A stretch of DNA of 64,000 nt from Gemmatimonadales bacterium (GCA_044221045.1 JBGAPX010000003.1:1-64000), one strand, 5' to 3'. Counted from the first letter of the stretch, positions 1-63,066 are shown. Made by a program: numbers and translations. Notes: generated by a model from the letters alone, not told the origin.

Positions 1-947
1 ATGGCGGCGGGATCGCGGAGCGGCGAGAGCACCATGCGGCGGAGCAGCCGGGCGCCCATGGGCGTCATGGTGGTGTCGAGCACCTCGAGCAGGGTGGTGT
101 TGCGGGCGCCGGCGCGCAGCGGCTCCACCAGCTCGAGGTTGCGGCGGGTCATGTCGTCCACCCAGAGGTGCACCTGGGAGCGGCGCACCTCGGGGCGGTG
201 CAGGTGGGGGAGGCCGGCGGGCTGCAGCTCGTGCACGTAGCGGAGCAGCGCGCCGGCGGCGCCCACCGCGGCGGCGTCCTCGGGGCCCAGGCCCAGCCCG
301 TCGAGGCTCGCCAGGCTGAAGCGGCGCGCCAGCTCGGTGCGGGCCAGCTCCGGGTCGAACTCCCACTTCTCGCGGGTGGTGCGGAGCACGCCGTCCTCGA
401 GCCGGAGCGCGGTGTCGCCGCTCAGCACGACCTCCGCCGGCGCCATCCGCGCCACCGCCTCCTCGAGGCCGCCCTCCGCCAGGCTCTCCATGATGAACTC
501 GCCGGTGGAGAGATCGATGGCGGCGAGGCCGGACGACGGCTCGGCGGCTCGGCGGCTCGGCGGCTCGGCCTCCGGGCTGCCGGCCGCCGAGACAGCGACC
601 AGAAAATTGTTGCGCACGCCGGGGAGGCAATGCTCGTCGAGCACGGCGCCGGGGGTGATGGTCTCGATCACCTCGCGGCGGACGATGCCCTTGGCGAGCT
701 TGGGATCCTCCACCTGCTCGCAGATGGCCACCCGGAAGCCGGCAGCGATGAACTGGCGCAGGTAGTCGGCGGCGGCCTTCACCGGCACGCCGGCGAGCGG
801 CACCCCGTCGCCGCGGGCGGTGAGGGTGATGTTGAGCACCCGCGCCGCCACCTCGGCGTCGTCGAAGAACATCTCGTAGAAGTCGCCCATGCGGAAGAAG
901 AGGATCGCGTCCCGGTGGCGGGACTTGATCTCCCGGTACTGCTGCAT
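1..947 (-). CDS. mutS: DNA mismatch repair protein MutS, N-terminal part. The gene continues past the window start and is not in the ORF track because there is no stop codon inside the window.
   Basis: Manual translation of the reverse complement gives ...TPLMQQYREIKSRHRDAILFFRMGDFYEMFFDDAEVAARVLNITLTARG...DLSTGEF..., the canonical MutS N-terminal mismatch-binding and connector sequence. ATG at 947; an alternative GTG lies at 983. Confidence 0.8.
   Translation of the reverse strand, partial: MQQYREIKSRHRDAILFFRMGDFYEMFFDDAEVAARVLNITLTARGDGVPLAGVPVKAAADYLRQFIAAGFRVAICEQVEDPKLAKGIVRREVIETITPGAVLDEHCLPGVRNNFLVAVSAAGSPEAEPPSRRAAEPSSGLAAIDLSTGEFIMESLAEGGLEEAVARMAPAEVVLSGDTALRLEDGVLRTTREKWEFDPELARTELARRFSLASLDGLGLGPEDAAAVGAAGALLRYVHELQPAGLPHLHRPEVRRSQVHLWVDDMTRRNLELVEPLRAGARNTTLLEVLDTTMTPMGARLLRRMVLSPLRDPAA
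538..569. repeat. 8-bp tandem repeat (GCTCGGCG, about 4 copies) lying in-frame inside mutS; it encodes an EAEPPSRRAAEP loop.
   Basis: Direct reading: tcggcggc tcggcggc tcggcggc tcggcc. The same repeat family recurs at about 1808, 1929 (inverted), 3068 and 13801. Confidence 0.7.
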
Positions 948-979
948 GAGCGGGGTGCCGCTGGCGTCGGCCGCCTTGC

Positions 980-1870
980 TCACGGCTCCGGCACCACGAA
1001 CGGCGAATGGCGGAGCTTGCGGCGGATCTGCTCCGCCGCCGCGGTGGCGGCGGCGCGGTCGGGGTACGGCCCGGCGCGCACCTTGAAGAGGGCGCCTTCC
1101 TTCACCGTATACGCCTGGAATCCGGCGTTGCGCAGGTCGCCCATGACCTTGTCGGCGGCGGCCTGGGTGTTCACCGCGGCCACCTGCACGCCGAAGCCGG
1201 TGCGGGCCGGGGTGGCGGGGGGCGCGGGCGTGGTGGCGGTGTCCGGCGCGGGGCGCGCGGTGTCGGCCGGCTGGGGATTGGTGCAGCGGCCGTTCAGGAA
1301 CTCGAGCCGGTTGCGGAGCTCCACGTCCTCGCCGGCGCGCTCCATGCCGATGGTCACCCAGGCGCAGGCCTCGTCGCGCTTCCGCTGGTCGAAGAAGGCG
1401 CGGGCGGCCCATTCCGCCGCGGCGCCGAGCGCGGGCGAGTCGGGGTAGTCGTTGCGGATGCGCTCGAGCTGCCGGGTGGCGCCGGGGAGGTTGCCGGCGG
1501 CGTAGTCGAGCAGCGCCAGGCGGTAGATGGCGTCGTCGGCCCAGTCGCTGGTGGCGTACTCCACCGACACCCGGGTGTAATTGCGGCGCATCTCGTCGAT
1601 GCTCCGGCTCACCAGCCCCATGGTGTAGAGCGCCTGAGGATAGAGGGTGTCGGTGGGCGGTGTCTGGCGCAGCAGGTTGGTGACGAGCACCCGGGCCGAG
1701 TCGCTGCCCCCTTCCTGCGCGATGCGCAGCGCGTCGACCAGGCGGGGGTCGGACTGGCTCGCCGCGGCCGTGGGGAGGAGGAGGGCGAGGGCGAGGAGTG
1801 CCGCGGCGGCGGCTCGGCGGCTCGGCGGCTGGTCGGCTCGGCAACGCGACTGCGGGAGAGTGTGCCTCAT
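980..1870 (-). CDS. SPOR-domain protein with a signal peptide and a TPR-like region.
   Basis: N-terminus MRHTLPQ...AAAAALLALALLLPTAAASQ looks like a signal peptide. C-terminus GFGVQVAAVNTQAAADKVMGDLRNAGFQAYTVKEGALFKVRAGPYPDRAAATAAAEQI is a SPOR fold. The start ATG overlaps the holA stop (ATGA). Confidence 0.7.
   Translation of the reverse strand: MRHTLPQSRCRADQPPSRRAAAAALLALALLLPTAAASQSDPRLVDALRIAQEGGSDSARVLVTNLLRQTPPTDTLYPQALYTMGLVSRSIDEMRRNYTRVSVEYATSDWADDAIYRLALLDYAAGNLPGATRQLERIRNDYPDSPALGAAAEWAARAFFDQRKRDEACAWVTIGMERAGEDVELRNRLEFLNGRCTNPQPADTARPAPDTATTPAPPATPARTGFGVQVAAVNTQAAADKVMGDLRNAGFQAYTVKEGALFKVRAGPYPDRAAATAAAEQIRRKLRHSPFVVPEP
1808..1842. repeat. 8-bp tandem repeat (GGCTCGGC)n, forward copy. 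It encodes QPPSRRAAAA in the SPOR-protein N-region.
   Basis: ggcggctcggcggctcggcggctggtcggctcggc read directly. It forms an inverted pair with 1929-1954. Confidence 0.65.
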
Positions 1871-2994
1871 CGTGTTGCTCCATGCATGGTCGAACTGTCC
1901 GAACGCCCGGCGGCCGGGCCGCCGGGTCGCCGAGTCGCCGAGCCGCCGAGCCGCAGCACCAGCCCCAGGATCACGCCGGTCTCGTCCGAGACGCGGGTGC
2001 CCTTGAGGGCGGCGTCGGCTTCCAAGGTAGCGCGGAGGGCGGCGCGGAGCCGTGCGCCGGACCACGTCTCGGCCCAGCGGCTCCAGTGGCGGGCGGCGGC
2101 CTTCCAGTCGCCGATGCCGAAGGGGCGGACGGCGCGGAAGCGCTCGAAGAGCACCCGCTCGAGCGCGCCGCCGCGGCTGCCCTTCTCGTAGTGGGCCCGG
2201 GCCAGGCGCACGCCCAGCAGGGTGGTGCCGAGGGTGGTGATCATCTTGACGCCGGTCATGCCGGCCTGGTCCAGCACCTGGCGGCCCAGGGTCACGGCGC
2301 GCGGGGTGTCGTCGTCGAGGAGCGCCTCGACCCAGTCCTCGACGGTCTCGCCGTGGCGGATGCCGACGAGCTCGCCGACGGTCTCCCGGCTCACGGGGCC
2401 CTGGTCGGCGAGGCTGGAGAATTTCTCCAGCTCCGCCCGCAGGGTGCCGAGGTCGTAGCCGGCGGCGAGGGCCAGGTGCTCGGCGGCCCCCTCACCGAAG
2501 GCCAGGCCCATCCCCTTGGCGTGCCAGGCGAGCCAGCGGGCGACGCGATCGGGCGGGAGGGGGTCCATCTGCACCGCGAAGCTCCGGGCGGCGATGGCCG
2601 CATCGGGCTCCCAGTTGCGGTCCTTCTCGGGGTTGGGCGCGCCCTCGACGAGGATGAGCACCGTCTCGGCCGCGGGGTTGGCGAGGTACTGCTGCAGCAC
2701 CTCGTGGATGGCGGCCTTCTTCTTCCACGCCTCGATGTCGCGGATCACCACCACCCGCCGGCTGGCGAGCATGGGCAGGGTGTTCACGAGGGCGTGGAGG
2801 TCCTCGGGGGCGAGACCCTGGGCGGCGCGCTGGTCGAAGTTGAAGTCGCGTTCGTGCGGCTCGAGGGCCCGGTCCACGATGGCGCGGACGGCCTCGTCCT
2901 TGAGGATGTCCTCGGAGCCGCAGAGGTAGTAGACGGGGGCCAGCTCGCCCTTACCCAGTGCGCGGAGGAGGTCATCGTAGGCACGGGCGGACAT
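1867..2994 (-). CDS. holA: DNA polymerase III delta subunit.
   Basis: MSARAYDDLLRALGKGELAPVYYLCGSEDILKDEAVRAIVDRALEP...RVVVIRDIEAW... matches the HolA clamp-loader delta subunit. I prefer the internal Met start at 2994 to the ORF-track start at 3054. Confidence 0.75.
   Translation of the reverse strand: MSARAYDDLLRALGKGELAPVYYLCGSEDILKDEAVRAIVDRALEPHERDFNFDQRAAQGLAPEDLHALVNTLPMLASRRVVVIRDIEAWKKKAAIHEVLQQYLANPAAETVLILVEGAPNPEKDRNWEPDAAIAARSFAVQMDPLPPDRVARWLAWHAKGMGLAFGEGAAEHLALAAGYDLGTLRAELEKFSSLADQGPVSRETVGELVGIRHGETVEDWVEALLDDDTPRAVTLGRQVLDQAGMTGVKMITTLGTTLLGVRLARAHYEKGSRGGALERVLFERFRAVRPFGIGDWKAAARHWSRWAETWSGARLRAALRATLEADAALKGTRVSDETGVILGLVLRLGGSATRRPGGPAAGRSDSSTMHGATR
1929..1954. repeat. 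Same 8-bp repeat in reverse orientation (GCCGAGYC)n. It encodes LRLGGSATRRPGG at the holA C-terminus.
   Basis: gccgagtcgccgagccgccgagccgc. It is an inverted partner of 1808-1842 and flanks the holA-stop / SPOR-start junction. Confidence 0.65.
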
Positions 2995-3067
2995 GGGGGA
3001 ATTGTACCGGGACGGGGCGGTGGGGCGGTAGGGGAAGGACGGTTCGGCATTCAAAGCACGTCACGGC

Positions 3068-3110
3068 GACTCGGCGGCTCGGCGGCTCGGCGACTCGGCG
3101 GCTCGGCCGC
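3068..3110. repeat. 8-bp tandem repeat (TCGGCGGC)n, about 5 copies, in the intergenic region between the anti-sigma gene end and the holA start.
   Basis: gactcggcggctcggcggctcggcgactcggcggctcggccgc read directly. Confidence 0.7.
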
Positions 3111-3115
3111 GGGGG

Positions 3116-3538
3116 TCAGGGGCGGGTGCGCTCGTAGATGATGAAGGGCATGGCCGGGATGACGCGCGGCTGGGCGACGACCATGGGCTGCACTTCGGCG
3201 GCGACGGGCTCGGGGAGGACGGTGAAGTCCCGGAAGTTCATCGCGGCGAGGATGGCGAGCAGGAGCACCGCGGCGGTGGCGGCCCAGGGGGAGACCCGGG
3301 GCGGGATCGGCTCGGGGACGACCTCGCCGCTCTGGATGCGCGCCTCGAGGCCCGCCAGGAAGGCGGGGGAGGGAGCGATCTCGCCACCGCGGAGGATCTC
3401 GGTGCCCTCACGCACGGCACGATCGAAGGCCGCGCAGCGGGCGCAGACCTCGAGGTGATCGTCCATGTCGGCGGCGAGCTCCGGGTCGTGGCCATCACGA
3501 TAGGCGGAGTAGCGGCGCCGGAAGTCCCGGCAGTCCAT
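3116..3538 (-). CDS. Membrane-anchored anti-sigma factor with a zinc-finger-type HxxxCxxC motif.
   Basis: MDCRDFRRRYSAYRDGH...HLEVCARCAAF... followed by one transmembrane helix (AATAAVLLLAILAAM). It lies immediately downstream of the ECF sigma gene. Confidence 0.6.
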   Translation of the reverse strand: MDCRDFRRRYSAYRDGHDPELAADMDDHLEVCARCAAFDRAVREGTEILRGGEIAPSPAFLAGLEARIQSGEVVPEPIPPRVSPWAATAAVLLLAILAAMNFRDFTVLPEPVAAEVQPMVVAQPRVIPAMPFIIYERTRP

Positions 3539-3678
3539 GAGGCTCGGATGTCTCAGTTGGCAATGTGTCGCCGCGAGGGAACCGGCGTCACTTCATGCCC
3601 TTATACCGCTTTTGCCGTCCAATGTTCCGGATATCGGTGGTGACCGGAGATCGGTCGCCCGGGTGTCCTGCGTGCGGC

Positions 3679-4335
3679 TCAGTCCAGGTGCGGGGCGATC
3701 AGTTCCGCGAAGCTCTGCCGGGCCCGGTTGAGCCGGCTCTTCACGGTGCCGAGGTTGCAGTGCATGATCTCGGCGATCTCCTCGTAGCTCTTCCCCTCGA
3801 GCTCCCGCAGCACGAACACCTCGCGATGGTGGCTCGAGAGCCGGGCCACCGTCTGGTCCACGAGGGCGCGCAGGTGGCGCTGCTCGTAGAGGTGGTCGGG
3901 GCGGCTGGCGGTGTCCTCGTACTCGACGGCGCGCGGCTCCTCCTCCTCGACGGCGCGGCCCTGGTCGAAGGCGATGAGCGGGGAGCGGCTGCGGTTGCGG
4001 AGCTCGTTCTTGGCGAGGTTGCTGGCGATGGTGTAGACCCAGGTGCTGAACTTCCGGGTCCGGTCGAAGCGGTCGAGGTGGCGGTAGACGCGGAGGAAGG
4101 CCTCCTGCACCAGGTCCTCCGCCCGCTCCCGGTCGCCGATCATCCGGTACACGAAGTTGAGCAGGCGGACCTGGTAGCGGCTCACGATCTGCCCGAAGGC
4201 GCGCCGGTCCCCCGCGAGATGCGCCTCGATCAGGGCGTTGATCTCGGGCTGGGGGCCGGGCGCGGCGACCGGCGCCGCCGCGGGGAGGCGGCGGCCACCG
4301 TTCAGGGCAGACTTGAGGAACCGCAGCAGCGCCAT
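3679..4335 (-). CDS. ECF (sigma-70 family) RNA polymerase sigma factor.
   Basis: Region 2 motif EDLVQEAFLRVYRHLDRF...TWVYTIASNLAKNELR and region 4 motif EVFVLRELEGKSYEEIAEIMHCNLGTVKSRLNRAR. Confidence 0.85.
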   Translation of the reverse strand: MALLRFLKSALNGGRRLPAAAPVAAPGPQPEINALIEAHLAGDRRAFGQIVSRYQVRLLNFVYRMIGDRERAEDLVQEAFLRVYRHLDRFDRTRKFSTWVYTIASNLAKNELRNRSRSPLIAFDQGRAVEEEEPRAVEYEDTASRPDHLYEQRHLRALVDQTVARLSSHHREVFVLRELEGKSYEEIAEIMHCNLGTVKSRLNRARQSFAELIAPHLD

Positions 4336-4339
4336 CGCG

Positions 4340-4897
4340 TCACCTCGCCTGGCCGCGCCCGGGGGCGCGGAAGGCCTGCAGGTACAACAGCGACACCAGG
4401 GTCTTGCCGTCCTGGATCTCGCCCCGCTCGATCAGGGCGAGCACCTCGGACCAGGGGGTGGGCCGGAGCTCGAGGAACTCGTCCTGCTCCCGCCGGTGCT
4501 GCCCCTCCTCTAATCCGCCGGCCACGAACAGGTGGATCCGTTCATCGGTGAAGCCCGGGGTGGTGTAGATCGTGGTGAGCCGCTCCAGCCGGCCCGCCCG
4601 CATCCCGGTCTCCTCCAGCAGTTCCCGCCGGGCGCACTGTTCCGGCTGCTCGCCCGGGTCCATCCGCCCCGCCGGGATCTCCCAGATGACGCCCCCCGCC
4701 GCGTGGCGGAACTGCCGGATCAGGAGCACCCGGGGGTCCGGGCCGGCCGGGTCATCCAGCATGGGGACGACGGCCGCGGCTCCGGGATGACGGATCATCT
4801 CCAGCTGGCCGGTGCTGCCGTCGGGGAACCGCACCGTTTCGAGGTCCAGGTGGATCACCCGCCCCGCGTACTTCCGCTCCGAGCCGATCAGCGTCAT
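4340..4897 (-). CDS. NUDIX hydrolase (ADP-ribose pyrophosphatase-like).
   Basis: NUDIX box GGVIWEIPAGRMDPGEQPEQCARRELLEETG. Internal Met start at 4897; the N-terminal extension in the ORF track is Arg-rich junk. It ends 4 bp from the sigma-factor start. Confidence 0.8.
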   Translation of the reverse strand: MTLIGSERKYAGRVIHLDLETVRFPDGSTGQLEMIRHPGAAAVVPMLDDPAGPDPRVLLIRQFRHAAGGVIWEIPAGRMDPGEQPEQCARRELLEETGMRAGRLERLTTIYTTPGFTDERIHLFVAGGLEEGQHRREQDEFLELRPTPWSEVLALIERGEIQDGKTLVSLLYLQAFRAPGRGQAR

Positions 4898-4990
4898 GGG
4901 GTGAACATGGACGCCCCGCCCCGGGGTCACAAGAGTACGCCCCGGGAAGGGGAGGGGCAATGTTGGGTAGGGGAAGGTTGGACAACCAAC

Positions 4991-5097
4991 GGGAAGCGGG
5001 AAGCGGCCTTCCCGCATGCGGGGATCAGGGACGACACCTGCCGGGAAACGGGCTCCAACCGGCCGCCGGAGCTCCGCTTCCCGTTTCCCGTTTCCCG
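4991..5097. repeat. Inverted repeats of the GGGAAGCGGGAAGCGG / CCGCTTCCCGTTTCCCG family between the M16 gene end and the NUDIX start.
   Basis: gggaagcgggaagcgg (4991-5006) and ccgcttcccgtttcccgtttcccg (5074-5097). A related pair flanks the gene at 60727. Confidence 0.55.
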
Positions 5098-6606
5098 TCA
5101 GTTCGTCGCCACCCCGTCCAGCCCCACCGCCACCACCGGTCCCAGGTTCAGCGCCTCGATGCCGGCGCGGATGCGGGCGGCGTCGCCGACCACGACCACG
5201 TGGAGGCGTTCGGGGTCGAAGCTGGCGCGGGCCACGCGCTGTACGTCGGCGGCGGTGACGGCCAGGACCTGCTTCACGTAGCCGTCGAACCAGGTGATGG
5301 GGAGGCCGTAGGTGAGCAGGTCGGCGACCTGGTCGCCCATCTGGCCCGCGGTCTCGAACTCGCCCGGGAGGCCGAAGGCGATGTAGTTGCGCGCCCGGGC
5401 CAGCTCGGCGTCGCTCACCGGGGTATCGCGGATGGCGTTGAGTTCCTTGAAGAACTCGACCAGGGAGCTGTCGGTCACGTCGCTGCGGACGGCGGAGCGG
5501 GCCGTGAAGGGTCCGGGGAGCGGGCGCCACGCGAAGCCGGAGCCGGCGCCGTAGGTGTAGCCCTTCGTCTCGCGCAGGTTCTGGTTGAGGCGGGAGGAGA
5601 ACGAGCCGCCGAGGATCGTGTTCATCACCTCGATGGCGGCGTAGTCGGGGGTGGAGCGGTCGAGGCCGGGGCGGCCGATCATGATCACCGACTGCGCGGC
5701 GCCGGGCTTGTCGACGAGGTAGATGACCCGGCGGCTGGGCGGCGTGGCGGCCGGGGGCACCGGGGCGCGGCGCGGCGCCATGCGGCTGGCGCGCCAGGCG
5801 CCGAAGCGGCGGCCGATCTCGGTGCGGGCCTCGGCCAGGGAGATGTCGCCCGTGATGATGAACTCGGCCTGGTCGGGGCGGACCACCCGCTGGTAGAACC
5901 CGCGCACGGTGGCCGAGTCGAGCCGGACGGTGCCGGCGGAGTCGCCATTGATGGGCCGGTGGTAGGGGTGCGCCGCCGGGTAGACGATCGCGCCGAAGGC
6001 CAGGCCGGCCATGCCGTTGGGCTGGTCGCGCGCGGCGAGGATGGCGGCCAGGCGGAGGTCGCGCTCGCGGCGGATGTCGCTGTCGCGGAAGGCGGGGCGG
6101 AGGGCCACGTCGGCCAGCAGGTCGAGCGCCGGGCCGAGGGTGCGGCGCGGGGTGTTGAGGCTGAGGTAGAGGTATTCCCAGTCGGCGCTGACGGAGAGCT
6201 CGGCGCCGAGGAAGGCGGCTTCGGCGGCGATGCCGAGGCCGTCCCGGGCGCCGGCGGCTTCATCGAGCATGCCGGCGGTGAAGGTGGCGAGGCCGGGGAG
6301 GTCACCGTCGAGGCGGCCGCCCCCCTTCACGCGGAGCGTGACCTGCACCAGCGGCACCTCGTGCATGGGGACCACCCGCAGGGCCGCGCCGTTGGGGAGC
6401 TTCGCCTGCTGGATGGCGGGAAGCGTGAGGCCGGCGGGCGGCGTCACCGCGGGGGCCTGGGTGCGGTCGAAGGCCTGGGCGTGGAGGCCGGTGGCGAGCA
6501 GCAGCGCGGAGGCGAGGGCAAGCGGCCGGGCCGCCGAGCCACCGTGGCGCCGGGAGAGGACCTTTCCCGTGGCGCCCGGGAGGACTGCGTTCGTGGGGCG
6601 GTTCAT
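5098..6606 (-). CDS. M16 family peptidase, probably the non-catalytic or second subunit (no HxxEH motif).
   Basis: Signal peptide. Insulinase-like domains with C-terminal RETKGYTYGAGSGF. 4-bp overlap with the upstream M16 gene. Confidence 0.8.
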   Translation of the reverse strand: MNRPTNAVLPGATGKVLSRRHGGSAARPLALASALLLATGLHAQAFDRTQAPAVTPPAGLTLPAIQQAKLPNGAALRVVPMHEVPLVQVTLRVKGGGRLDGDLPGLATFTAGMLDEAAGARDGLGIAAEAAFLGAELSVSADWEYLYLSLNTPRRTLGPALDLLADVALRPAFRDSDIRRERDLRLAAILAARDQPNGMAGLAFGAIVYPAAHPYHRPINGDSAGTVRLDSATVRGFYQRVVRPDQAEFIITGDISLAEARTEIGRRFGAWRASRMAPRRAPVPPAATPPSRRVIYLVDKPGAAQSVIMIGRPGLDRSTPDYAAIEVMNTILGGSFSSRLNQNLRETKGYTYGAGSGFAWRPLPGPFTARSAVRSDVTDSSLVEFFKELNAIRDTPVSDAELARARNYIAFGLPGEFETAGQMGDQVADLLTYGLPITWFDGYVKQVLAVTAADVQRVARASFDPERLHVVVVGDAARIRAGIEALNLGPVVAVGLDGVATN

Positions 6607-7973: not shown

Positions 7974-8080
7974 GGGATGGGCTCTCCTCACGGGACGCGG
8001 CGGGGTGCTGGCGTGAAACCCGCCATGAGCCGAGAATAATAGCGGGCCCGGTTCCCCTCCGGTCCCGGCAAGGATGGTCC

Positions 8081-9832
8081 ATGGCGGCGGTCGCGGGTGC
8101 GCCTGGCCGGCCTCGCGGCGGCGAGGCACGATGGCTGACGGCGGCGGTGGTGATCTGGGGCGGGTGGGCGCTGTTCGCGCTGCTCGGGCCCTTCTCCGCG
8201 TGGAGCATCCCCTGGCGCTACGCCGGGTTCGGCGCCTCCACCACGGTGGAGGGGGTGCTCTTCTGGCTGGCCTCCCGGCGCCCCGACCTGGGCCCGCGGC
8301 TCCGGGTGGCGCTCGGGATCTCCGCGGTGGCGTTCGCGGTGAGCAGCTTCTCCTACCTGTACACCGGCGCCGCCGAACTCGGGGCGCTGCCGCCCTTCCC
8401 CACGCTGCTGGACGACGTGCTCACCTTCGCCACCTACGGCATCGCGGTGGTGGGCCTGCTGTGCTGGCCGCTGGCGCCGCTGCCGCGGGGCCGCTGGTGG
8501 CACTTCGGGCTCGACGCCACGATCGGCATCGGGGGGATGGGCCTCTTCTTCTGGGTGCTCTCCACCCAGCCCGGCGACACCGCCGGCGACCCGTCGGAGC
8601 GGGGCTTCCTGCTGGCGCTGAGCGCGGCGCAGCTGCTGGACCTGGTGGCGATCAACGTGGTGCTGGTGCGGGGACTGCCGCTCCCCACCCGGCGCGCCTT
8701 CCGGTGGTACATGGCCGCGCTGGGCCTCGAGATCGTGAGCCTGGTGGTCATCCAGTACTTCGCGACGACCCTGCCGCCGAACGCCGTGAGCCGGTACGAC
8801 GACGCGCTCTACATCGTGGTCCAGCTGCTCTACGTCAGCGCGGGCCTCCTGATGCTGTTCGACCCGGTGGAGGAGCCGGCGCCGTCGCCGCTGCCGCCGT
8901 GGATGCTCACCTTCAACCCGCTGCCGCTGCTGGCCATCACGGGGGTGGCGGCGCTGTTCCTTTCGGAAGCGGCCCGGGGGGACGGGCCGCTGGAGGGCGT
9001 GCTCGCGCTCGGGCTGGTGGCGCTGGTGGCGCTGCAGACCATCCGCCTGCTGGCGACGGTGTGGGAGAACGCCCGCCTGGTGCGGCACGAGGCGGCGCTG
9101 CAGGCGGAGAAGCTGGAGGCGCTGCGCCGGATCTCGGGCGGGATCTCGCACGAGTTCAACAACATGCTCACGGCGGTGATCGGCCACGCGGAGCTGGGCC
9201 TGTCGGAGGTGGAGCCGAGCAGCCGGGTGGGCCGCGACCTGGAGGGCATCCGGACGGCCGCGGAGCGCGCCGCGGTGCTGACCCGGGAGCTGCTGGCGTA
9301 CAGCGGGGGCCAGTTCACCGGCCGGCAGGGGCTGGACCTGGCGGCGGGACTGCGGCGGCAGGCGCCGGAGCTCCGGCAGGCCGCGGGGAGCCGGGTCGCG
9401 GTGATCCTGCACCTGCCGTCCGACCCTGCCTGGGTGACCGGCGACGCCGCCCAGCTGGCCGAGATGATCCTGGTGCTGGCCCGGAACGCCGAGCGCCGGA
9501 TGCCGTCCGGGGGCACGCTGACGATGGAGCTGCAGCGGGCGCGCCTCGAGGCGCCGATCGGGATCACCGGCGGGGCGCTCCCGCCCGGGGACTACCTCCG
9601 GCTCGCGGTGGCTGACACCGGCCCGCCGGTTGCACGGGCCGCGGTGAACCGGATCTTCGAGCCCTTCTCCGCCGCGGGGAACGGCGGGATCCCGTCGCTC
9701 GGCCTGGCGGCGGTGCAGGGGGTGGTGACAGCGCACGGCGGCGGGATCGTGGCCGCCAGCGAGCCGGGCCAGGGGCTCGTGCTGACGCTGTACCTCCCGG
9801 AGGCCGCCCCGGCCACCGCCGGCCCCGCCTGA
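8081..9832 (+). CDS. Sensor histidine kinase with a multi-pass membrane N-terminal domain and no receiver domain.
   Basis: About 8 hydrophobic helices, then the HisKA H-box ISHEFNNMLTAVIGHAELG and an HATPase_c domain (...GGGIVAASEPGQGLVLTLYLP). Confidence 0.8.
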   Translation: MAAVAGAPGRPRGGEARWLTAAVVIWGGWALFALLGPFSAWSIPWRYAGFGASTTVEGVLFWLASRRPDLGPRLRVALGISAVAFAVSSFSYLYTGAAELGALPPFPTLLDDVLTFATYGIAVVGLLCWPLAPLPRGRWWHFGLDATIGIGGMGLFFWVLSTQPGDTAGDPSERGFLLALSAAQLLDLVAINVVLVRGLPLPTRRAFRWYMAALGLEIVSLVVIQYFATTLPPNAVSRYDDALYIVVQLLYVSAGLLMLFDPVEEPAPSPLPPWMLTFNPLPLLAITGVAALFLSEAARGDGPLEGVLALGLVALVALQTIRLLATVWENARLVRHEAALQAEKLEALRRISGGISHEFNNMLTAVIGHAELGLSEVEPSSRVGRDLEGIRTAAERAAVLTRELLAYSGGQFTGRQGLDLAAGLRRQAPELRQAAGSRVAVILHLPSDPAWVTGDAAQLAEMILVLARNAERRMPSGGTLTMELQRARLEAPIGITGGALPPGDYLRLAVADTGPPVARAAVNRIFEPFSAAGNGGIPSLGLAAVQGVVTAHGGGIVAASEPGQGLVLTLYLPEAAPATAGPA

Positions 9833-9981
9833 CCCGGCGAACCGGTCCCCCACGCAATCGGGAATCCGTCCCGGGGAGATGCACCGGGGGCCCACCTTCT
9901 GCGGCGGCGCGCGCGCGGTAGATTCCCCGGCGCGGCGGTCACGCCAGTGCGCCGCGCCTGCCACCGTCCCCGCGAACGCCG

Positions 9982-11718
9982 ATGACCGACGCCATCGCCG
10001 GATCCACATTGCACCCCGTTCCCCCCCGGACGCGCGCCAGCGCGCCGCCGTGGCTCTGGGCTGGCGGGGCGTTCCTGGTGCTCGCCGGCGTGGCGCTGGC
10101 GCTGCCGCGCTGGGCCCACCCGTCGGATCCCCAGCTGCTCGTGGTCTTCGAGGTGCGGCTGCTCATCGAGGGGGCGGCCTACCTCTGGGCGGCGGGGCGA
10201 CGGGAGCTGCCACCCGCGCTGCGCCGCGTGCTGCTCCTGACGGGCGGCATCTCGATCGTCTCGCTGCTCACGAACCTGCCGCTGCTCGGGCTCACCGGGC
10301 CCGCGCCGGAGTGGGTGGTGGACGCGCTGGACGTCTGGCTGTTCATCTCCTACATGCTCTCGGCGCTGGCGCTGCTGCTGTGGCCGCGCATCGAGACCCG
10401 GCGCTGGGACGCGCTCACCCTGCTGCTCGACCTGGTCATCACCGCCGGGGCGATGGGCGCGCTGGTGCTGATCGAGGTGACCTTCCCGCTCGCAGACGCC
10501 ACGCCCGGCGCGACGGAGGCGCGGTGGTCCCTGATCTACGGGCTGGCGCAGGTGGCCTCGCTGGCGGGCCTGTCGGTCATGGTGGTGCGGGGGCGTCCGC
10601 TGCCCTCGCGGCGGGCGTTCTGGTGGTTCGTGGCGGCGCAGGCGGCCTACCTCCCGGCGCTCCTCCTCTCCCAACTCGGCATGGCCGAGGTGATCACGCA
10701 GGTGGCGGGGCGGGTGCTCTACGTCGTGGGGGTGCTGCCGGCGCTGGTGGCGGCGGTGTTCATCCGGCGCGACCCGGTGACCCTGGACCGGGGTTCGGCG
10801 GGGCCGCCGTGGCTCCGCGACCTGAGCCCCCTCCCGCTGGTGACGCCGGTGCTGGTGGTGGTGGCCCTGCTCAACGCGATGGCCGCCGGCCCGGCCAGCC
10901 GGGTACAGCCGCTGATCGCGATGCTGATCATCACCACGCTGCTGCTGGTGATCCGGGTGCTGCTCTCCGCCGGGGAGAGCGCGGCGCGGCTGCGGGATGA
11001 GGGGGAGCGGGAGCGGCGGCTGCAGCGGGAGAAGCTGGCGACGGTGGGCCGGCTGGCCGGGGGCCTGGCGCACGAGTTCAACAACATGATGACGGTGGTG
11101 GCGGGCCACGCCGAGTTCGCCGAGCAGGCGGTGCCGGCGGGGCACGCGGCGCAGGCCGACCTGGCGGTCATCCGGGAGCAGTCGGAGCGGGCCGCGCGCC
11201 TGACCCGGCAGCTGCTCTCGTTCAGTGGCCAGCAGCTGTTCCAGCTGGAGGCGGTGCCGGTGGCCCGCCTGCTCGCGGAGCTGCGGGCGGCGCTCGAGCC
11301 CGCGGTCACCTGCGAGGCGGCGCCGGGGGTGGAGTTCCTCGCCATCCGGGCGGACCTGCCGCTGCTGGTCGCGGCGGTGCAGCAGCTGACGCGCAACGCG
11401 CTCGAGGCCGGCGGCGCGACGTCACCGGTGCTGCGGCTGGCGGCGGTGGCCTACGCGACCGCGCTCGACAGCCCCTACCTGCCGGTGCCGGCGGGGCGGC
11501 ACCTGTCCCTGTCGGTGCGGGACGCCGGCGGCGGGATCGCGCCCGAGGACCTGCCGCGGCTGTTCGATCCCTTCTTCACCCGCAAGCCGGTGCACAGCGC
11601 CGGGGGACTCGGCCTCGCGGAGGTGTATGGGGTGGCGGTGGGGCACCACGGCGGGATCACGGTGGCCAGCACGGTGGGACAGGGGACCACGGTGACGCTC
11701 TACCTGCCGTTCGCCTAG
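9982..11718 (+). CDS. Sensor histidine kinase, a tandem paralogue of the upstream kinase.
   Basis: Same architecture: multi-transmembrane N-terminus, H-box LAHEFNNMMTVVAGHAEFA, and HATPase_c (GGLGLAEVYGVAVGHHGGITVAS). Confidence 0.8.
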   Translation: MTDAIAGSTLHPVPPRTRASAPPWLWAGGAFLVLAGVALALPRWAHPSDPQLLVVFEVRLLIEGAAYLWAAGRRELPPALRRVLLLTGGISIVSLLTNLPLLGLTGPAPEWVVDALDVWLFISYMLSALALLLWPRIETRRWDALTLLLDLVITAGAMGALVLIEVTFPLADATPGATEARWSLIYGLAQVASLAGLSVMVVRGRPLPSRRAFWWFVAAQAAYLPALLLSQLGMAEVITQVAGRVLYVVGVLPALVAAVFIRRDPVTLDRGSAGPPWLRDLSPLPLVTPVLVVVALLNAMAAGPASRVQPLIAMLIITTLLLVIRVLLSAGESAARLRDEGERERRLQREKLATVGRLAGGLAHEFNNMMTVVAGHAEFAEQAVPAGHAAQADLAVIREQSERAARLTRQLLSFSGQQLFQLEAVPVARLLAELRAALEPAVTCEAAPGVEFLAIRADLPLLVAAVQQLTRNALEAGGATSPVLRLAAVAYATALDSPYLPVPAGRHLSLSVRDAGGGIAPEDLPRLFDPFFTRKPVHSAGGLGLAEVYGVAVGHHGGITVASTVGQGTTVTLYLPFA

Positions 11719-12311
11719 CGCTCCGCGCGGACGCCGAGCAGGACGACGGGGATCTTCCACGCCTCCTGGGCAAAGAAGAAGAGCTCGGAACTCCGGCGCT
11801 GGGAGATGGGGCTGGTGCGGGTGGGGGAGGTGGAGGCGGTGAGCCCGGCGCGGCTGGCCTCGATGCGCAGCCGCAGCATGTGGAAGGGATCGCTCACCAG
11901 CAGGACCCGCGGGGTGCCCCGTTCCAGGGCCCAGTCGGCCACCGAGCGCACCGACGACTGGGTGGAGCGGCCCTCGGGGCGCACCACCACGGCGGTATCC
12001 GGCACGCCGTGACCCACCAGGTACTGCTGCCCCACCGTCGCCTCGCTCACCCGGTCCCCCTCACCGATCCCGCCGGTCACCACCACGGTCGGCGCCAGGC
12101 CCTCACGGTAGAGCGTGAGCGCGTGCTCCAGCCGCGCGCGCAGCACCGGGGAGGGCTTGCCGTTGTACTGCGCGGCGCCGAGGACCACGATGGCGTCCAC
12201 CAGGCGGCGCTGGTCCTCGCGGCTGACGAGGTAGACGGCGAGGAGCGAGACGAGGTAGAGGACGGCCGGCGTGAGGACGGCGGCGAGCAGCAGGCGGCGG
12301 GAGCGAGTCAC
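11715..12311 (-). CDS. DUF218 (YdcF/SanA-like) protein.
   Basis: AIVVLGAAQYNGKPSPVLRARLEHALTLYREGLAPTVVVTGG matches the DUF218 family. N-terminal transmembrane helix. Confidence 0.7.
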   Translation of the reverse strand: MTRSRRLLLAAVLTPAVLYLVSLLAVYLVSREDQRRLVDAIVVLGAAQYNGKPSPVLRARLEHALTLYREGLAPTVVVTGGIGEGDRVSEATVGQQYLVGHGVPDTAVVVRPEGRSTQSSVRSVADWALERGTPRVLLVSDPFHMLRLRIEASRAGLTASTSPTRTSPISQRRSSELFFFAQEAWKIPVVLLGVRAER

Positions 12312-12330
12312 GGGCGGAAGTTAAGCGGGG

Positions 12331-12399
12331 GGGCGGTGGGGCGGTAAAGGCGGTAAGGGCGGTAAAGGCGGTAACTTACCGCCTTTACCGCCCTTACCG
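12331..12399. terminator. 9-bp tandem repeat (GGCGGTAAR)n about 5 copies, followed by its perfect inverted complement: a strong hairpin immediately downstream of the RNase gene stop.
   Basis: ggcggtaaaggcggtaagggcggtaaaggcggtaa|cttaccgcctttaccgcccttaccg read directly. A related array is at 62907-62997. Confidence 0.55.
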
Positions 12400-12400
12400 T

Positions 12401-13792
12401 CTAGGCGAGCTCGAAGCTCTCGCCCTGTGCCGGCACGTCCACCTGGCGCACCCCTTCCTCCTTGAGCAGCTGCGCCATGGCGAGGGTGGCCTCGCGCTCT
12501 CCGTGGACCACGAAGGCGCGCTTGATGGGGCCGCCGAGGCGACGGAGCCAGGCGCGCAGCTCGTTCCGGTCGGCGTGGGCGGAGTAGCCGCCGATGGTCT
12601 CGACGGTGGCGCGGACCGGCAGCTCCTCGCCGAAGATCTTCACCACCCGCGCGCCGTCCTGGATGCGCCGGCCGAGGGTGTTCTCCCCCTGGAAGCCGAC
12701 GAAGAGGACCACGGTCTTGTGGTCGCCGACGTGGTTGGCCAGGTGGTGCAGGATGCGGCCCGACTCGGCCATGCCGCTCGCGGCGATGATGATCGCGGGG
12801 CCGGGCATGCCGTTGAGCTTCTTGGAGTCGCTGACGTCGCGGACGTACTGCACCAGCGGGAAGTCGAACAGCGCGGTGGTGCGCTCGATCAGGCGCTCGT
12901 CGCGGTCGAACAGGTCGGGGTGCAGCCGGAAGACGGCGGTGGCGTCCACCGCGAGCGGGCTGTCCACGAAGATCGGGATGCCGGGGATCTGCCCCGCGCG
13001 GAAGAGCTGGTGCAGGCTGTACACCAGCTCCTGGGTGCGGCCCACCGCGAAGGAGGGGATGAGGATCTTGCCGCCGCGGCCCGCCACCTGGCGCACGATG
13101 CCGCCCAGCCGCGTCTCGGCGTCGGTGACGGTCTCGTGGGTGCGGTTGGCGTAGGTGGACTCGATGATCAGCGTGTCCACCGGGCCGGCCGGCGGGTCGG
13201 GGTCGCGGATGATGGGCAGCCCGGGCCGGCCGATGTCGCCGGAGAAGACCAGCCGGTGGGTGGCGCCCTCGGTGAGGCGCAGGTCCACCGACGCGGAGCC
13301 GAGGATGTGGCCGGCGTCGGTGAACTCGAAGGCGATGTGCTTGCGCAGGTGCTGCACCCGGCGGTAGGGCAGCCCGACCATCAGGTCCTGCACCGCCACG
13401 GCGTCGGCCAGGGTGTAGAGCGGCTCGCTCTCGGGCCCGACCTTCCGGCGCCGCGCCAGGAACTCCGCATCCTTCTCCTGGATGTGGGCCGCGTCGGGGA
13501 GCATCACCGCGGAGAGGTCGCGGGTGGCGGCGGTGGCGTAGATGGGGCCGTGGAAGCCGCGGCGCACCAGCAGCGGCAGCCGTCCCGCGTGATCGATGTG
13601 GGCGTGGGAGAGGATCACCCCATCGAGGGTGCGGGGATCGATGGGGAGGTTGGCGTTCTGCGCGTGCGATTCCGCGCGCCGCCCCTGGAACAGCCCGGCG
13701 TCGAGCAGGAAGCGCGCGCCGGCGGCCTCGAGGAGGTGCATCGAGCCGGTGACCTGGCCGGCGGCGCCGTGAAAGGTGAGGCGGAGGGGCAT
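12401..13792 (-). CDS. MBL-fold metallo-hydrolase of the beta-CASP ribonuclease type.
   Basis: MPLRLTFHGAAGQVTGSMHLL, then the HxHxDH motif (SHAHIDHAG) and C-terminal beta-CASP / RNA-metabolising domains. Internal Met start at 13792. Confidence 0.8.
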   Translation of the reverse strand: MPLRLTFHGAAGQVTGSMHLLEAAGARFLLDAGLFQGRRAESHAQNANLPIDPRTLDGVILSHAHIDHAGRLPLLVRRGFHGPIYATAATRDLSAVMLPDAAHIQEKDAEFLARRRKVGPESEPLYTLADAVAVQDLMVGLPYRRVQHLRKHIAFEFTDAGHILGSASVDLRLTEGATHRLVFSGDIGRPGLPIIRDPDPPAGPVDTLIIESTYANRTHETVTDAETRLGGIVRQVAGRGGKILIPSFAVGRTQELVYSLHQLFRAGQIPGIPIFVDSPLAVDATAVFRLHPDLFDRDERLIERTTALFDFPLVQYVRDVSDSKKLNGMPGPAIIIAASGMAESGRILHHLANHVGDHKTVVLFVGFQGENTLGRRIQDGARVVKIFGEELPVRATVETIGGYSAHADRNELRAWLRRLGGPIKRAFVVHGEREATLAMAQLLKEEGVRQVDVPAQGESFELA

Positions 13793-13800
13793 GGTGGTTC

Positions 13801-13843
13801 GCTCGGCGGCTCGGCGGCTCGGCGGCTCGGCAGCTCGGCGCTT
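13801..13843. repeat. 8-bp tandem repeat (TCGGCGGC)n, about 5 copies, in the 5' region of the RNase gene.
   Basis: gctcggcggctcggcggctcggcggctcggcagctcggcgct read directly. Confidence 0.7.
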
Positions 13844-15997: not shown

Positions 15998-16070
<73 letters not shown>

Positions 16071-57465: not shown

Positions 57466-60636
<3,171 letters not shown>

Positions 60637-60643
60637 GGGAAGA

Positions 60644-60660
60644 GGGAAACGGGAAGCGGG
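60644..60660. repeat. GGGAAACGGGAAGCGGG repeat, the left arm flanking the DUF2892 gene.
   Basis: Partner ccgcttcccgcttcccttttccccgtttcccgg at 60991-61023 (inverted). Same family as 4991-5097. Confidence 0.55.
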
Positions 60661-60726
60661 CAGAGGGGAATGGGGAACGGAACACGGGGCAGGGTCGTGC
60701 CCGTCACGGAATACAAGGAGGCACCG

Positions 60727-60939
60727 GTGTGCAATGAAATGGTCATCCGGCGGATCGCCGGCACGTTCATCCTGCTGTCGCTGGCGCTGGCGCACTGGGT
60801 GAATCCCTACTGGCTGCTGTTCACGGCGTTCGTGGGCTTCAACCTGATCCAGTCGAGCCTCACCGGGTTCTGCCCGCTGGAGCGGATCCTGGGGCGGTTC
60901 GGGCTGTTCGGTTGCAGCCCCCACACGCCGACGCGCTGA
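60727..60939 (+). CDS. DUF2892 (YgaP-like) small membrane protein.
   Basis: IRRIAGTFILLSLALAHWVNPYWLLFTAFVGFNLIQSSLTGFCPLERIL is the DUF2892 signature with GFCP. RBS AAGGAGG 7 nt before a GTG at 60727; an alternative ATG is at 60739. Confidence 0.6.
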   Translation: MCNEMVIRRIAGTFILLSLALAHWVNPYWLLFTAFVGFNLIQSSLTGFCPLERILGRFGLFGCSPHTPTR

Positions 60940-60990
60940 GGGAGAAGCGCGAACAGGGGAAGGGCGAAGGGGGAGTCTGGAGGTAGCCGA

Positions 60991-61023
60991 CCGCTTCCCG
61001 CTTCCCTTTTCCCCGTTTCCCGG
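60991..61023. repeat. CCGCTTCCCGCTTCCC...CCGTTTCCCGG inverted partner of 60644-60660.
   Basis: Read directly. Together the pair bracket a 330-bp segment carrying only the DUF2892 gene. Confidence 0.55.
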
Positions 61024-62997: not shown

Positions 62998-63066
62998 CTC
63001 CTGCGTTCCCGCCTATATTCCCGCCCGTCCAAGGCAGTCCCCAGACCCCCTGATTTCGGAGTTTCC

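Follow-up and report, generated by a model that had tools for sequence, protein, structure and literature searches.

Tandem octamer arrays lie within and between minus-strand genes

The window (the whole 64-kb stretch of DNA analysed here) has a G+C content of 69-77% and begins with the 5' part of mutS (1-983, minus strand), which runs off the left end and whose GTG start codon at 983 overlaps the stop codon of a SPOR-domain gene (1870 to 980, minus strand). Beyond it are holA (2994 to 1867, minus strand), whose stop codon overlaps the SPOR ATG (ATGA), an anti-sigma gene and a gene encoding a beta-CASP/RNase J-like protein. All genes at the array loci are on the minus strand, according to gene calls also made on the same species. 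Tandem Repeats Finder identified period-8 arrays at all five sites (5/5) proposed in the initial annotation, with 4-5.5 copies, 85-100% match and limits within a few bases of those proposed. They are found in mutS (537-569, plus strand, (CGGCTCGG)4.1, 100% match), in the SPOR gene (1807-1842, plus strand, 4.5 copies), in holA in the opposite orientation (1913-1954, minus strand, 5.2 copies), between the anti-sigma gene and holA (3064-3107, plus strand, 5.5 copies) and upstream of the RNase J-like gene (13801-13840, plus strand, 5.0 copies). The holA array was present as annotated, except that it starts at 1913, 16 nt earlier. One further array locus is located just beyond the window edge. The unit first described, TCGGCGGC, is a rotation of CGGCTCGG, a non-palindromic octamer that is free of stop codons in all six frames.

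The arrays are real and non-random. Two-unit matches with up to 2 mismatches were found 18 times, versus 1.39 +/- 1.25 times in shuffled sequences, and 0/100 shuffles reached 18. Outside the arrays, CGGCTCGG occurs 15 times in the window and ranks about 777th among 8-mers, indicating that it is not simply the commonest one, as had been raised as an objection. GC-rich low-complexity sequence is common, but both the shuffles and the modest rank of the octamer argue against a by-product of base composition.

Array pairs are predicted to form hairpins at gene junctions

The mutS array contributes 33 bp to the open reading frame and is in frame (..SPEAEPPSRRAAEPSSG..). Its 8-bp unit is no multiple of 3; in the mRNA the array reads (CCGAGCCG)n, which encodes EAEPPSRRAAEPS. 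The resulting insert of 13 aa falls where the connector domain begins, in the loop of a beta-hairpin; alignment with E. coli MutS (1E3M) placed it between residues about 138 and 139, in a beta-hairpin turn. The length of this loop varies widely among 120 Gemmatimonadales MutS proteins. Judged by this variation and by the mapping to a turn, the insertion site appears to be a tolerant one. A short degenerate inverted partner (gccggccgccgagac, 579-593, plus strand) forms a quasi-palindrome with 537-569, with a predicted fold of -51 kcal/mol (z = -3.6).

The SPOR array corresponds to residues 10-21 (RADQPPSRRAAA), in the N-terminal portion of a sequence that resembles a signal peptide, and no alternative start codon was found 3' of it in the SPOR gene. 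The holA array, read as (CGGCUCGG)n in the mRNA, lies within a 28-aa C-terminal tail past the conserved domain. The initial annotation suggested that a long mRNA hairpin could span the holA stop and the SPOR start. Folding of the inverted pair (1807-1842 and 1913-1954) agreed with this proposal: the holA array is predicted to provide the 5' arm and the SPOR array the 3' arm of a structure of -106.7 kcal/mol (z = -5.2).

The two remaining arrays are C-rich in the mRNA sense. The array at 3064-3107 follows the anti-sigma stop codon (3116) by 8 nt and precedes the holA ATG (2994) by about 70 nt. The array at 13801-13840, first listed as in the RNase 5' region, is not in the coding sequence but intergenic, 8 nt upstream of the RNase J-like ATG (13792) and 26 nt downstream of the preceding stop codon; it is predicted to be unstructured, no more folded than shuffled sequences (z = -0.4). 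Related families are present at other gene ends. A (GGCGGTAAA)n array and its inverted complement (12340-12399, plus strand) make a perfect 23-bp hairpin that begins 2 nt past the RNase J-like stop codon (predicted z = -7.8), and a (CGGTAAAGG)6.6 array (62907-62965, plus strand), which starts at a TAG stop codon, is followed after about 20 nt by a short inverted partner. Sister unit families comprise GGCGGTAAA, GGCGGTAG, GGGCGGTT and CGGGAAG.

Arrays are dispersed across Gemmatimonadales and show a strand polarity

Scanning for exact (CGGCTCGG)3 returned at least 109 loci, and 56 of the 109 listed came from Gemmatimonadales/Gemmatimonadaceae MAGs, with at least 9 loci from one MAG; in Streptomyces and other taxa, a genome usually contributed a single array to the matches listed. 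The motif is a dispersed family, as the initial annotation had considered, with several loci per Gemmatimonadales MAG. Period 7-8 arrays were counted 82 times in 403 kb of Gemmatimonadales loci versus 16 times in 379 kb of other high-GC loci. Among the matches listed, 78 arrays could be classified: 72 were noncoding or at a gene edge and 5 were in frame inside coding sequence.

The arrays have a preferred orientation. In the CGGCTCGG reading, coding sequence adjoins the 5' side of 28/67 arrays and the 3' side of 4/67 (matches listed); 72 arrays of other units followed the same direction (32 vs 8). When real gene calls were used, 10/11 of the arrays that start no more than 10 nt from a stop codon were purine-rich in the mRNA sense, and among those within 60 nt of a start codon pyrimidine-rich arrays prevailed by 10 to 1. 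In all 11 close inverted pairs among the matches listed (11/11), the G-rich arm was the 5' one and the C-rich arm the 3' one; no pair had the opposite order. The orthologous holA/SPOR, anti-sigma/holA and post-mutS junctions keep an array while its unit changes among CCGAGCCG, TACCGCCC and AACCGCCC. This strand rule and the turnover of units at orthologous sites hint at a putative function.

These observations raise the possibility, tentative and of somewhat less than even probability, that the arrays are selected gene-border elements acting on RNA or DNA, and that the copies inside genes, the mutS array among them, are spill-over. Possible roles would include hairpins that end or protect transcripts in a genome lacking U-tract terminators, unstructured pyrimidine-rich leaders that aid access to the start codon, and arrayed binding sites for nucleoid proteins or global regulators. 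In addition to the polarity, the arm order and the retention of arrays with changing units, this reading is supported by the very stable hairpins predicted at array pairs, by a lone C-rich array that is as unstructured as its shuffles, and by the lack of canonical terminators above chance level in 15 kb. Tandem hepta- and octanucleotide sites that occur in pairs in Geobacter metallireducens have been proposed to serve global regulators (PMC2700814). On the other side, copy number varies freely between populations, arrays are missing at the anti-sigma/holA site of L127 and at the holA/SPOR site of L128, and the arrays matched no Rfam family (the sole match in the window was a tRNA at 15998-16070). 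The polarity could also partly reflect the orientations tolerated beside genes and not a positive function.

A stronger version appears unlikely: Gemmatimonadales would mark gene borders by strand-polar arrays, purine-rich at stops and pyrimidine-rich into starts, which pair as intercistronic hairpins and whose unit is rapidly replaced while position and polarity are kept, the mutS tract being both spill-over and a natural reversible mutator switch. If true, such border marking would imply a dedicated process that installs or copies sequences, or strong selection for a new transcription/translation punctuation, in the setting of a high-GC genome where terminators and Shine-Dalgarno sites are scarce.

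It is very unlikely that the arrays are termini or copies of a non-autonomous mobile element (a MITE-like element or a REPIN-like doublet) inserting at borders and occasionally in genes. An identical unit at many loci in many MAGs would fit such an element, as would the inverted doublets, which resemble REPINs with predicted hairpin z-scores of -3.6 to -7.8, and the mutS insert, which holds both arms. Local clustering would fit as well, all five arrays of the 64-kb window being confined to 13.3 kb (post hoc P of about 0.008 under random placement), and so would L119, where, within one species, a different repeat family takes the place of the array at the same site. However, the loops between paired arms (5-139 nt) are unrelated, even within one MAG, there is no fixed length, the unit is not a palindrome, and precisely where the mutS array sits the sister lineage carries one proto-unit, which fits in-situ expansion. 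The MITE or REP identity considered in the initial annotation is not supported by these data. The REP, BIME and REPIN sequences of proteobacteria are extragenic, highly repeated inverted doublets that form hairpins at gene ends, with proposed roles in mRNA stability and termination; REPs are imperfect palindromes of 20-40 nt with a conserved 5' tetranucleotide and are mobilised by RAYT transposases. Unlike these, the arrays described here are tandem non-palindromic octamers with variable unit number and do not have the form of a REP/REPIN unit. The unrelated loops, the unit-step lengths and the proto-unit at the sister site do not fit a MITE, with its terminal inverted repeats, fixed core and target-site duplication.

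Array length varies by whole units between populations

Polymorphism was analysed in 16 independent ENA metagenome assemblies of the species, which differ by 20-120 SNPs. Intergenic arrays differed by whole 8-bp units between assemblies, a variation that the initial annotation had proposed to look for. The holA-upstream array had 4, 5 or 6 units (spacers of 85, 93 or 101 nt), the spacer past the mutS stop codon had 2, 3 or 4 units, and the RNase-upstream array equalled the window in 12/13 assemblies and was one unit shorter in 1/13. The spacer with the GGCGGTAAA 9-mer array ranged from 89 to 174 nt in steps of about 9 bp. The SPOR array was constant in length in 15 assemblies, and the holA array did not change in length either, showing only G/A point differences.

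That the arrays simply result from the base composition (73% G+C) or from errors in metagenome assembly is extremely improbable. Frameshifts at homopolymers were found elsewhere in the same assemblies, and long-read contigs carry error-like mutS frameshifts at G-runs. Against an error, every difference in array length is an exact multiple of the unit, and the alleles go together with flanking haplotypes. The arrays are also shorter than the final assembly k-mer (k141, according to the contig names), so that their collapse would not be expected.

The mutS array is young and has a natural frameshift allele

The mutS array was 33 bp long (4.1 units) in the window and in 15/16 assemblies, and 25 bp long (3.1 units) in ERZ27258516. 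As anticipated for a unit of 8 bp, the change of one copy shifts the reading frame: everything beyond about residue 146 is lost, the gene caller returned only a 707-aa ORF without MutS_I, and the original frame continues into 802 aa of nonsense. This allele, found in 1/16 independent assemblies, is a single case read from a consensus assembly. It has 12 private substitutions, 7 of them nonsynonymous, whereas eight other alleles have 0-1 nonsynonymous changes each. From its nonsynonymous load, the ERZ27258516 mutS may be an older pseudogene and not a fresh slip; however, 7 of the 12 private changes lie together in a stretch of 14 nt.

The tract was present in all sequences of the species (17/17). 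It is missing from a sister lineage whose MutS is 95.7% identical, which has a single proto-unit instead, and from P0083 (MutS 89% identical). Within the 90% identity cluster, the insert is found in the MutS proteins of 871 aa; those of 858/846 aa (95.7% identical) have the sequence ATEPSSGL, and their DNA holds one CCGAGCCG unit. Since the insert is absent from a lineage this close, it is young, and the tract is not kept by selection across the lineage.

It is decidedly unlikely that the mutS tract is an evolved contingency locus, that is, a selected and reversible ON/OFF switch maintaining a standing mutator subpopulation, as the initial annotation had contemplated. Simple-sequence contingency loci generate phase variation by slipped-strand mispairing, for example in Haemophilus and Neisseria. 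The mutS tract resembles them by its location in an ORF of a gene with an essential domain and by its unit not divisible by 3, and, going by the one allele with one unit fewer, may share their length polymorphism and natural out-of-frame alleles; it is also perfect (100% match), unlike the degenerate SPOR and holA copies. In L127, a related species with 78% identical MutS, the same loop contains an array pair, more clearly inverted, that is off by one nucleotide modulo 3, equal to one unit. The mutS of L127 is, however, split by two further frameshifts of doubtful quality. Unlike contingency loci, the tract is short (4 units only), young, and resides in a housekeeping repair gene instead of a surface or restriction gene. 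It belongs to a genome-wide family and is not specific to mutS. Its variant frequency (1/16) matches that of the neutral, similar-sized intergenic array upstream of the RNase gene (1/13), and no other tract length, whether a +1 or a revertant allele, was seen among the 16 assemblies. Outside mutS, the ERZ27258516 contig has 5 singletons in 11.5 kb compared with 4-18 in other assemblies; with no excess of private SNPs, this contig has no mutator footprint.

Such a switch would resemble the repeat-mediated mutL/mutS allele conversion described for Salmonella. A precedent for repeats acting in a mismatch-repair gene exists in Salmonella and E. coli, where slippage of 6-bp repeats inactivates mutL and has been proposed to modulate mutability (Chen et al. 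2010, PMC2955026). The change in mutL is in frame and deletes two residues of the ATP-binding region, and the conversion was demonstrated experimentally (PMC2955026). Both cases involve tandem repeats inside a mismatch-repair gene and an inactivating change in copy number, which is predicted for mutS; they differ in the gene, in the 8-bp unit and in the frameshift, with one natural allele observed here.

Slippage-prone repeats probably account for the arrays

The arrays probably represent a lineage-wide family of dispersed, slippage-prone 7-9 bp repeats, and the mutS copy an incidental hotspot with no demonstrated adaptive switch. Replication slippage would grow and shrink the arrays in whole units, and template switching at quasi-palindromes would create inverted arms or keep the arms alike, leading to pairs that fold into hairpins, the G-rich arm being the 5' one and the C-rich arm the 3' one. 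The octamer encodes flexible Pro/Ser/Arg/Ala/Glu or Arg/Leu/Gly/Ser/Ala peptides. Because it also lacks stop codons in all six frames, it can persist in frame in tolerant protein regions; candidate hosts would be the MutS surface loop, the N-region of a signal peptide and a C-terminal tail. The mutS copy probably arose recently and in place, when a single proto-unit (ACCGAGCCG, coding for TEP) expanded. As the 8-bp unit is no multiple of 3, adding or removing one or two units shifts the mutS frame after about residue 146, which should abolish mismatch repair, and the array would throw off mutator alleles at a low rate. Local slippage alone fails to explain why one unit recurs across many loci and many species, why a strand rule applies at gene ends, and why units differ at orthologous junctions of related lineages. 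The recurring unit, the strand rule and the unit turnover suggest that selection, a sequence-specific process or copying between loci acts on top of slippage.

Arrays resemble short tandem repeats of other bacteria

The arrays are STRR-like in consisting of tandem 7-9 bp units at many loci, mostly extragenic and restricted to a lineage. STRRs (short tandemly repeated repetitive sequences) are lineage-restricted and occur as several unit families per genome; the heptamers of heterocystous cyanobacteria were reportedly described by Mazel and colleagues in 1990. Both groups form dispersed, mostly intergenic arrays in which 7-9 bp units follow head to tail, from a few copies up to about a dozen, but the host here is Gemmatimonadota and the unit a GC-rich 8-mer. 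We know of no STRR with fixed-order inverted pairing, a strand rule at stops and starts, in-frame genic copies or copy-number polymorphism between natural populations, all of which were observed in the Gemmatimonadales arrays.

Elements of Geobacter metallireducens consist of 3-5 tandem units of 7-9 nt, are species-specific and mostly form pairs whose members lie on opposite strands, separated by varying distances (Aklujkar et al. 2009, PMC2700814). One family, GGGACCG x4, has 49 copies between and within genes (PMC2700814). Their unit number is fixed, they were read as sites for unidentified IHF/HU-type regulators, and neither copy-number variation nor frameshift effects are reported for them (PMC2700814). 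The Gemmatimonadales arrays share their short tandem units and opposite-strand pairs; the unit sequences differ and homology is not expected.

Period-8 arrays are present at five sites

Tandem Repeats Finder, run on the window, called period-8 arrays at 5/5 sites for which the initial annotation had claimed an 8-bp repeat. The repeat observation is confirmed; the interpretation first placed on it is partly supported. The unit reads CGGCTCGG on one strand and CCGAGCCG on the other. Arrays were found in mutS (537-569; 4.1 copies, 100% match), in a SPOR-domain protein gene (1807-1842; 4.5 copies), on the opposite strand in holA (1913-1954; 5.2 copies), in the intergenic region between an anti-sigma gene and holA (3064-3107; 5.5 copies, 8 nt 3' of the anti-sigma stop) and before a beta-CASP/RNase J-like gene (13801-13840; 5.0 copies, 8 nt 5' of the ATG at 13792). 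A two-unit octamer probe with up to 2 mismatches gave 18 matches, versus 1.39 +/- 1.25 in dinucleotide-preserving shuffles. The window has a G+C content of 69-77%. With the arrays masked, the octamer occurred 15 times in 64 kb and ranked about 777th among 8-mers; the possibility, raised at the outset, that it is simply the most common 8-mer therefore does not hold. All five arrays (5/5) fall in the first 13.8 kb, with a probability of about 0.008 under random placement, calculated post hoc.

Every gene in this part of the window is on the minus strand, and independent gene calls from the same species agree. As initially proposed, three arrays lie within coding sequence, the mutS, SPOR and holA copies all being translated. 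The mutS gene (minus strand) starts with a GTG at 983 that overlaps the preceding gene's stop, and is cut off by the left end of the window; its array is in frame and its translation reads ..VAVSAAGSPEAEPPSRRAAEPSSGLAAIDLSTGEF.. The SPOR-domain protein (minus strand, 1870 to 980) reads MRHTLPQSRCRADQPPSRRAAAAALLALALLLPTAAASQ..., and its signal-peptide-like sequence takes its N-region from the array; direct reading of the sequence revealed no alternative start codon between the array and the hydrophobic core. The holA product (minus strand, 2994 to 1867) has a C-terminal tail of 28 aa past the conserved domain, LGGSATRRPGGPAAGRSDSSTMHGATR, where translation crosses the inverted array and stops at a TGA overlapping the SPOR ATG. 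In the stretch separating the holA and SPOR arrays, no coding signal was detected with a model of codon usage trained on long ORFs.

The array before the RNase J-like gene lies outside coding sequence, as indicated by the conserved N-terminus (MPLRLTFHGAAGQVTGS) and gene calls of 463 aa. A 495-aa ORF was rejected as the real gene on the same grounds; it exists because the array contains no stop codons. The octamer has a stop codon in no frame, so it can survive in tolerant parts of proteins. It is not the sole unit that is stop-free in six frames, since CGGGAAG and GGGCGGTT are as well.

Upstream of holA (2995-3010), a TACAAT hexamer ends 7 nt 5' of the ATG, without a Shine-Dalgarno-like sequence. 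The relative L127 (GCA_044221505.1) has the same layout, with TATACT as the hexamer. This placement, read from sequence, suggests that the holA transcript may be leaderless.

Related arrays in the window and in other genomes

A scan for exact (CGGCTCGG)3, using one genome per species, listed at least 109 loci, among which the window's own genome was absent. Fifty-six of the listed loci were from Gemmatimonadales/Gemmatimonadaceae MAGs, one of which gave at least 9; among the matches listed, Streptomyces and other high-GC genomes mostly had one array each, often long and noncoding. The 56 loci contained 80 arrays. When these arrays and the five of the window were considered together, 72/78 classifiable arrays were noncoding or at a gene edge and 5/78 were in frame inside coding sequence. 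A further ~100 arrays were found in the 56 loci, made of diverse units with a period that was nearly always 7, 8 or 9 bp; arrays of period 7-8 numbered 82 in 403 kb of listed Gemmatimonadales loci versus 16 in 379 kb of listed non-Gemmatimonadales loci. The sister lineage (MutS 95.7% identical) had ~13 arrays within 22.5 kb. The suggestion of a REP/MITE-like dispersed element thus holds for its dispersal; a MITE-type element was rejected, given that the arrays share no conserved flanks or loops.

Arrays of other units were also found in the window. A GGCGGTAAA array and its inverted complement (12340-12399) form a perfect 23-bp hairpin 2 nt 3' of the RNase J-like stop, followed by a C-rich tail without a U-tract. 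Grouped with the GGCGGTAAA arrays, (CGGTAAAGG)6.6 (62907-62965) starts at the TAG codon that terminates a plus-strand gene; a short inverted partner follows at ~62985-63000, an architecture like that of the octamer pairs. Stop codons are also adjoined by a CCGTTTC 7-mer array (5074-5098) and by purine-rich 7-mer arrays (GGGAAGA/GGGAAAC; 60628-60692 and 60939-61022), the one after the stop at ~60938 having a C/T-rich inverted partner at 60991-61022. An Rfam scan of the window gave no match at the arrays; its sole match was a tRNA gene (15998-16070, plus strand).

The cyanobacterial STRR heptamers are among the closest known relatives in kind of the octamer family. So are the paired tandem hepta- and octanucleotide elements of Geobacter metallireducens (PMC2700814). 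A literature search for tandem repeats in Gemmatimonadetes gave nothing relevant.

In the sister lineage, the second peptidase M16 gene contains an in-frame (CCGAGCCC)5.4 array (L143, 5252-5293). Tandem Repeats Finder called no array in its counterpart in L110, a same-species assembly (gene lengths 481 vs 502 aa).

Array pairs have a fixed arm order and follow a strand rule

Close pairs were ordered 5'-(CGGCTCGG)n-loop-(CCGAGCCG)n-3' in 11/11 cases (opposite order, 0), with loops of 5-139 nt that were unrelated to each other even inside a single MAG. Fold prediction agreed with the mRNA hairpin anticipated in the initial annotation for the inverted pair at the holA stop and SPOR start: the junction RNA has a predicted fold of -106.7 kcal/mol (z = -5.2 relative to shuffles), its loop containing both the stop of holA and the start of SPOR. 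Predicted folds were -51 kcal/mol (z = -3.6) for the mutS array and its short degenerate partner at 579-593, and -47.4 kcal/mol (z = -7.8) for the 9-mer pair after the RNase J-like stop. The single C-rich array before the RNase J-like start had no predicted structure beyond that of shuffles (z = -0.4).

The arrays are polarised with respect to genes. Coding sequence was present within 60 nt on the 5' side of 28/67 CGGCTCGG-oriented arrays and on the 3' side of 4/67. An independent set of arrays of other units (n = 72), oriented by their purine-rich strand, displayed the same polarity (32 vs 8). With real gene calls, 10/11 arrays starting at most 10 nt after a stop were purine-rich in the mRNA sense, and those within 60 nt of a start were pyrimidine-rich (10 vs 1). 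This strand rule covers all 7-9 bp arrays in the gene-called L110, L127, L130 and L143 and in the 56 listed Gemmatimonadales loci, and in their pairs the G-rich arm is always 5'. No canonical hairpin-plus-U terminators were found beyond chance in the first 15 kb of the window, and no canonical promoters beyond chance.

Orthologous sites keep their arrays with changed units, indicating that position and polarity persist while the sequence turns over. The holA/SPOR junction has an inverted pair in three lineages, each with its own units: CGGCTCGG in this species, GGCGGT-type/TACCGCC in the relative L129 and GGCGGTTA/AACCGCCC in L127. The anti-sigma/holA spacer contains (CCGAGCCG)n in this species versus (TACCGCCC)8 in the sister lineage. 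Different units were found after the peptidase stop even in sister-lineage MAGs with identical MutS, a GCGGTAGG/TACCGCCC pair being replaced by CGGGAAG (L145 5870-5900 vs L143 5915-5984).

Collectively, the arrays are best explained as belonging to a family of short tandem repeats that are dispersed and driven by slippage, which would change their length. Slippage alone is insufficient for the strand rule, the fixed arm order and the unit turnover at conserved positions. With these features, a real function of the arrays at gene borders is conceivable, through termination or stabilisation by hairpins, as unstructured leaders or by binding proteins, a role that we consider possible although somewhat improbable. 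If confirmed genome-wide, the strand rule and unit turnover would indicate that gene boundaries in Gemmatimonadota have a layer of organisation that has gone unrecognised, and would warn annotators that ORFs there run through stop-free arrays, as in the 495-aa versus 463-aa RNase J-like ORFs and the holA tail. A repeat family of this kind can also seed new peptide insertions in conserved proteins, as seen here in a loop of MutS, in a signal peptide and in a C-terminal tail. The value of these observations would rise sharply if array action as gene-border punctuation, or recurrent mutS switching, proved true.

The mutS array and its broken allele

In a 90% identity cluster, 871-aa MutS proteins have a 13-aa insert, and in 858/846-aa proteins (95.7% identical, NCBI MAGs) the loop reads ..FLLAVAATEPSSGLAAID.. 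The DNA of the latter has a single ACCGAGCCG at the insert position, which argues that the array, along with a short quasi-palindromic partner, expanded in situ from this proto-unit. Alignment to E. coli MutS places the insert between residues about 138 and 139, in a beta-hairpin turn where the connector domain begins. Across 120 Gemmatimonadales MutS proteins this loop differs greatly in length, and array-like inserts occur in it again in two more distant species, as a degenerate copy in frame (L128) and as a clear inverted pair whose frame is off by one nucleotide modulo 3 (L127). In the best-supported interpretation, the mutS copy is a young, incidental insertion that leaves the gene prone to frameshifts whenever one or two units are gained or lost.

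The mutS gene of L127 (6001-8635) is broken into three ORFs of 402, 310 and 153 aa, the first break being at the array pair, and ten neighbour genes are intact. This may be a natural pseudogene or poor sequence, two further breaks being of uncertain quality, and is kept as a lead.

The mutS tract is 33 bp long in the window and in 15/16 independent assemblies. In ERZ27258516 it is 25 bp, one unit less, and this is the sole indel of the gene. The gene call is a single 707-aa ORF without the mismatch-binding domain, and the original mutS frame continues as 802 aa of Arg/Pro-rich nonsense. The final k-mer length (contig names begin with k141) greatly exceeds that of the tract, which would make assembler collapse unlikely. 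The initial annotation had envisaged a slipped-strand switch giving a mutator phenotype. The naturally shorter allele, in 1/16 assemblies, bore out the change in length. The frameshifted gene, which loses everything beyond about residue 146, would be predicted to confer a mutator phenotype and might revert; adaptive maintenance of the tract is improbable.

No excess of private SNPs, as a mutator footprint, was found outside mutS on the ERZ27258516 contig. Its mutS carries 12 private substitutions, 7 of them nonsynonymous, versus 0-1 nonsynonymous in each of eight other alleles; 7/12 are clustered within 14 nt, so this excess is not robust and is treated only as a hint that constraint on the gene may be relaxed. 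Two MutS proteins truncated in the loop region, P0046 and P0056, were rejected as array frameshifts: their frameshifts are at G-runs in long-read contigs with fused neighbouring genes and no arrays, and are probable sequencing errors.

The shortened allele parallels the repeat-mediated inactivation of mismatch-repair genes in Salmonella (PMC2955026). It represents a natural, population-level case of a mismatch-repair gene broken by a one-unit loss in an uncultured environmental bacterium, and the question of repeat-made mutators in wild bacteria is now testable with existing read sets.

Copy number varies among natural populations

Exact-protein look-ups recovered the same species in many assemblies of ENA metagenomes as well as in two NCBI MAGs, and repeating the anti-sigma look-up with less flanking sequence contributed one more sample. 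Besides ERZ27258516, roughly 78 samples carry the species. Near-complete MAGs exist both for it (GCA_046327715.1, GCA_964426055.1) and for the sister lineage, for example GCA_016709265.1, with a contig of 2.7 Mb. An exact look-up of the window's holA protein found no record. A variable-gap scan of JGI metagenomes for the tract in mutS gave no match, so the species is evidently absent from that collection. Same-species contigs differ by ~20-120 SNPs over shared kilobases, indicating that the assemblies represent different populations.

The copy-number variation between strains that had been suggested as a check was found in these assemblies. The holA-upstream array has 4, 5 or 6 units (spacers of 85, 93 and 101 nt), linked to flanking haplotypes, and the RNase J-like-upstream array has one unit fewer in 1/13 assemblies. 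Just outside the window, the spacer from the mutS stop to the next ATG reads TAG(GCCGAGCC)2-4GCCGCCCATG; in one same-species assembly (L119, 9886-9934), the (CCGAGCCG)n after mutS is replaced by (TACCGCCC)5. The spacer containing the 9-mer array at 12340-12399 ranges from 89 to 174 nt. The translated SPOR and holA arrays are constant in length, with G/A point changes only. The arrays are usable as VNTR strain-typing markers for the lineage.

Individual assemblies (L116 and L118) also contain single-base indels, of which one, in L116, lies in a G-run, as well as a deletion of two bases (GG); these changes split a peptidase M16 gene and a histidine kinase gene and lengthen the ECF sigma gene. 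They reflect either real pseudogenes or errors of assembly and call for caution when frameshifts in these assemblies are interpreted. Same-species assemblies also display a 13-nt indel polymorphism between the ECF sigma and anti-sigma genes (~3539-3678), with CGCACGCAGGACA either present or absent.
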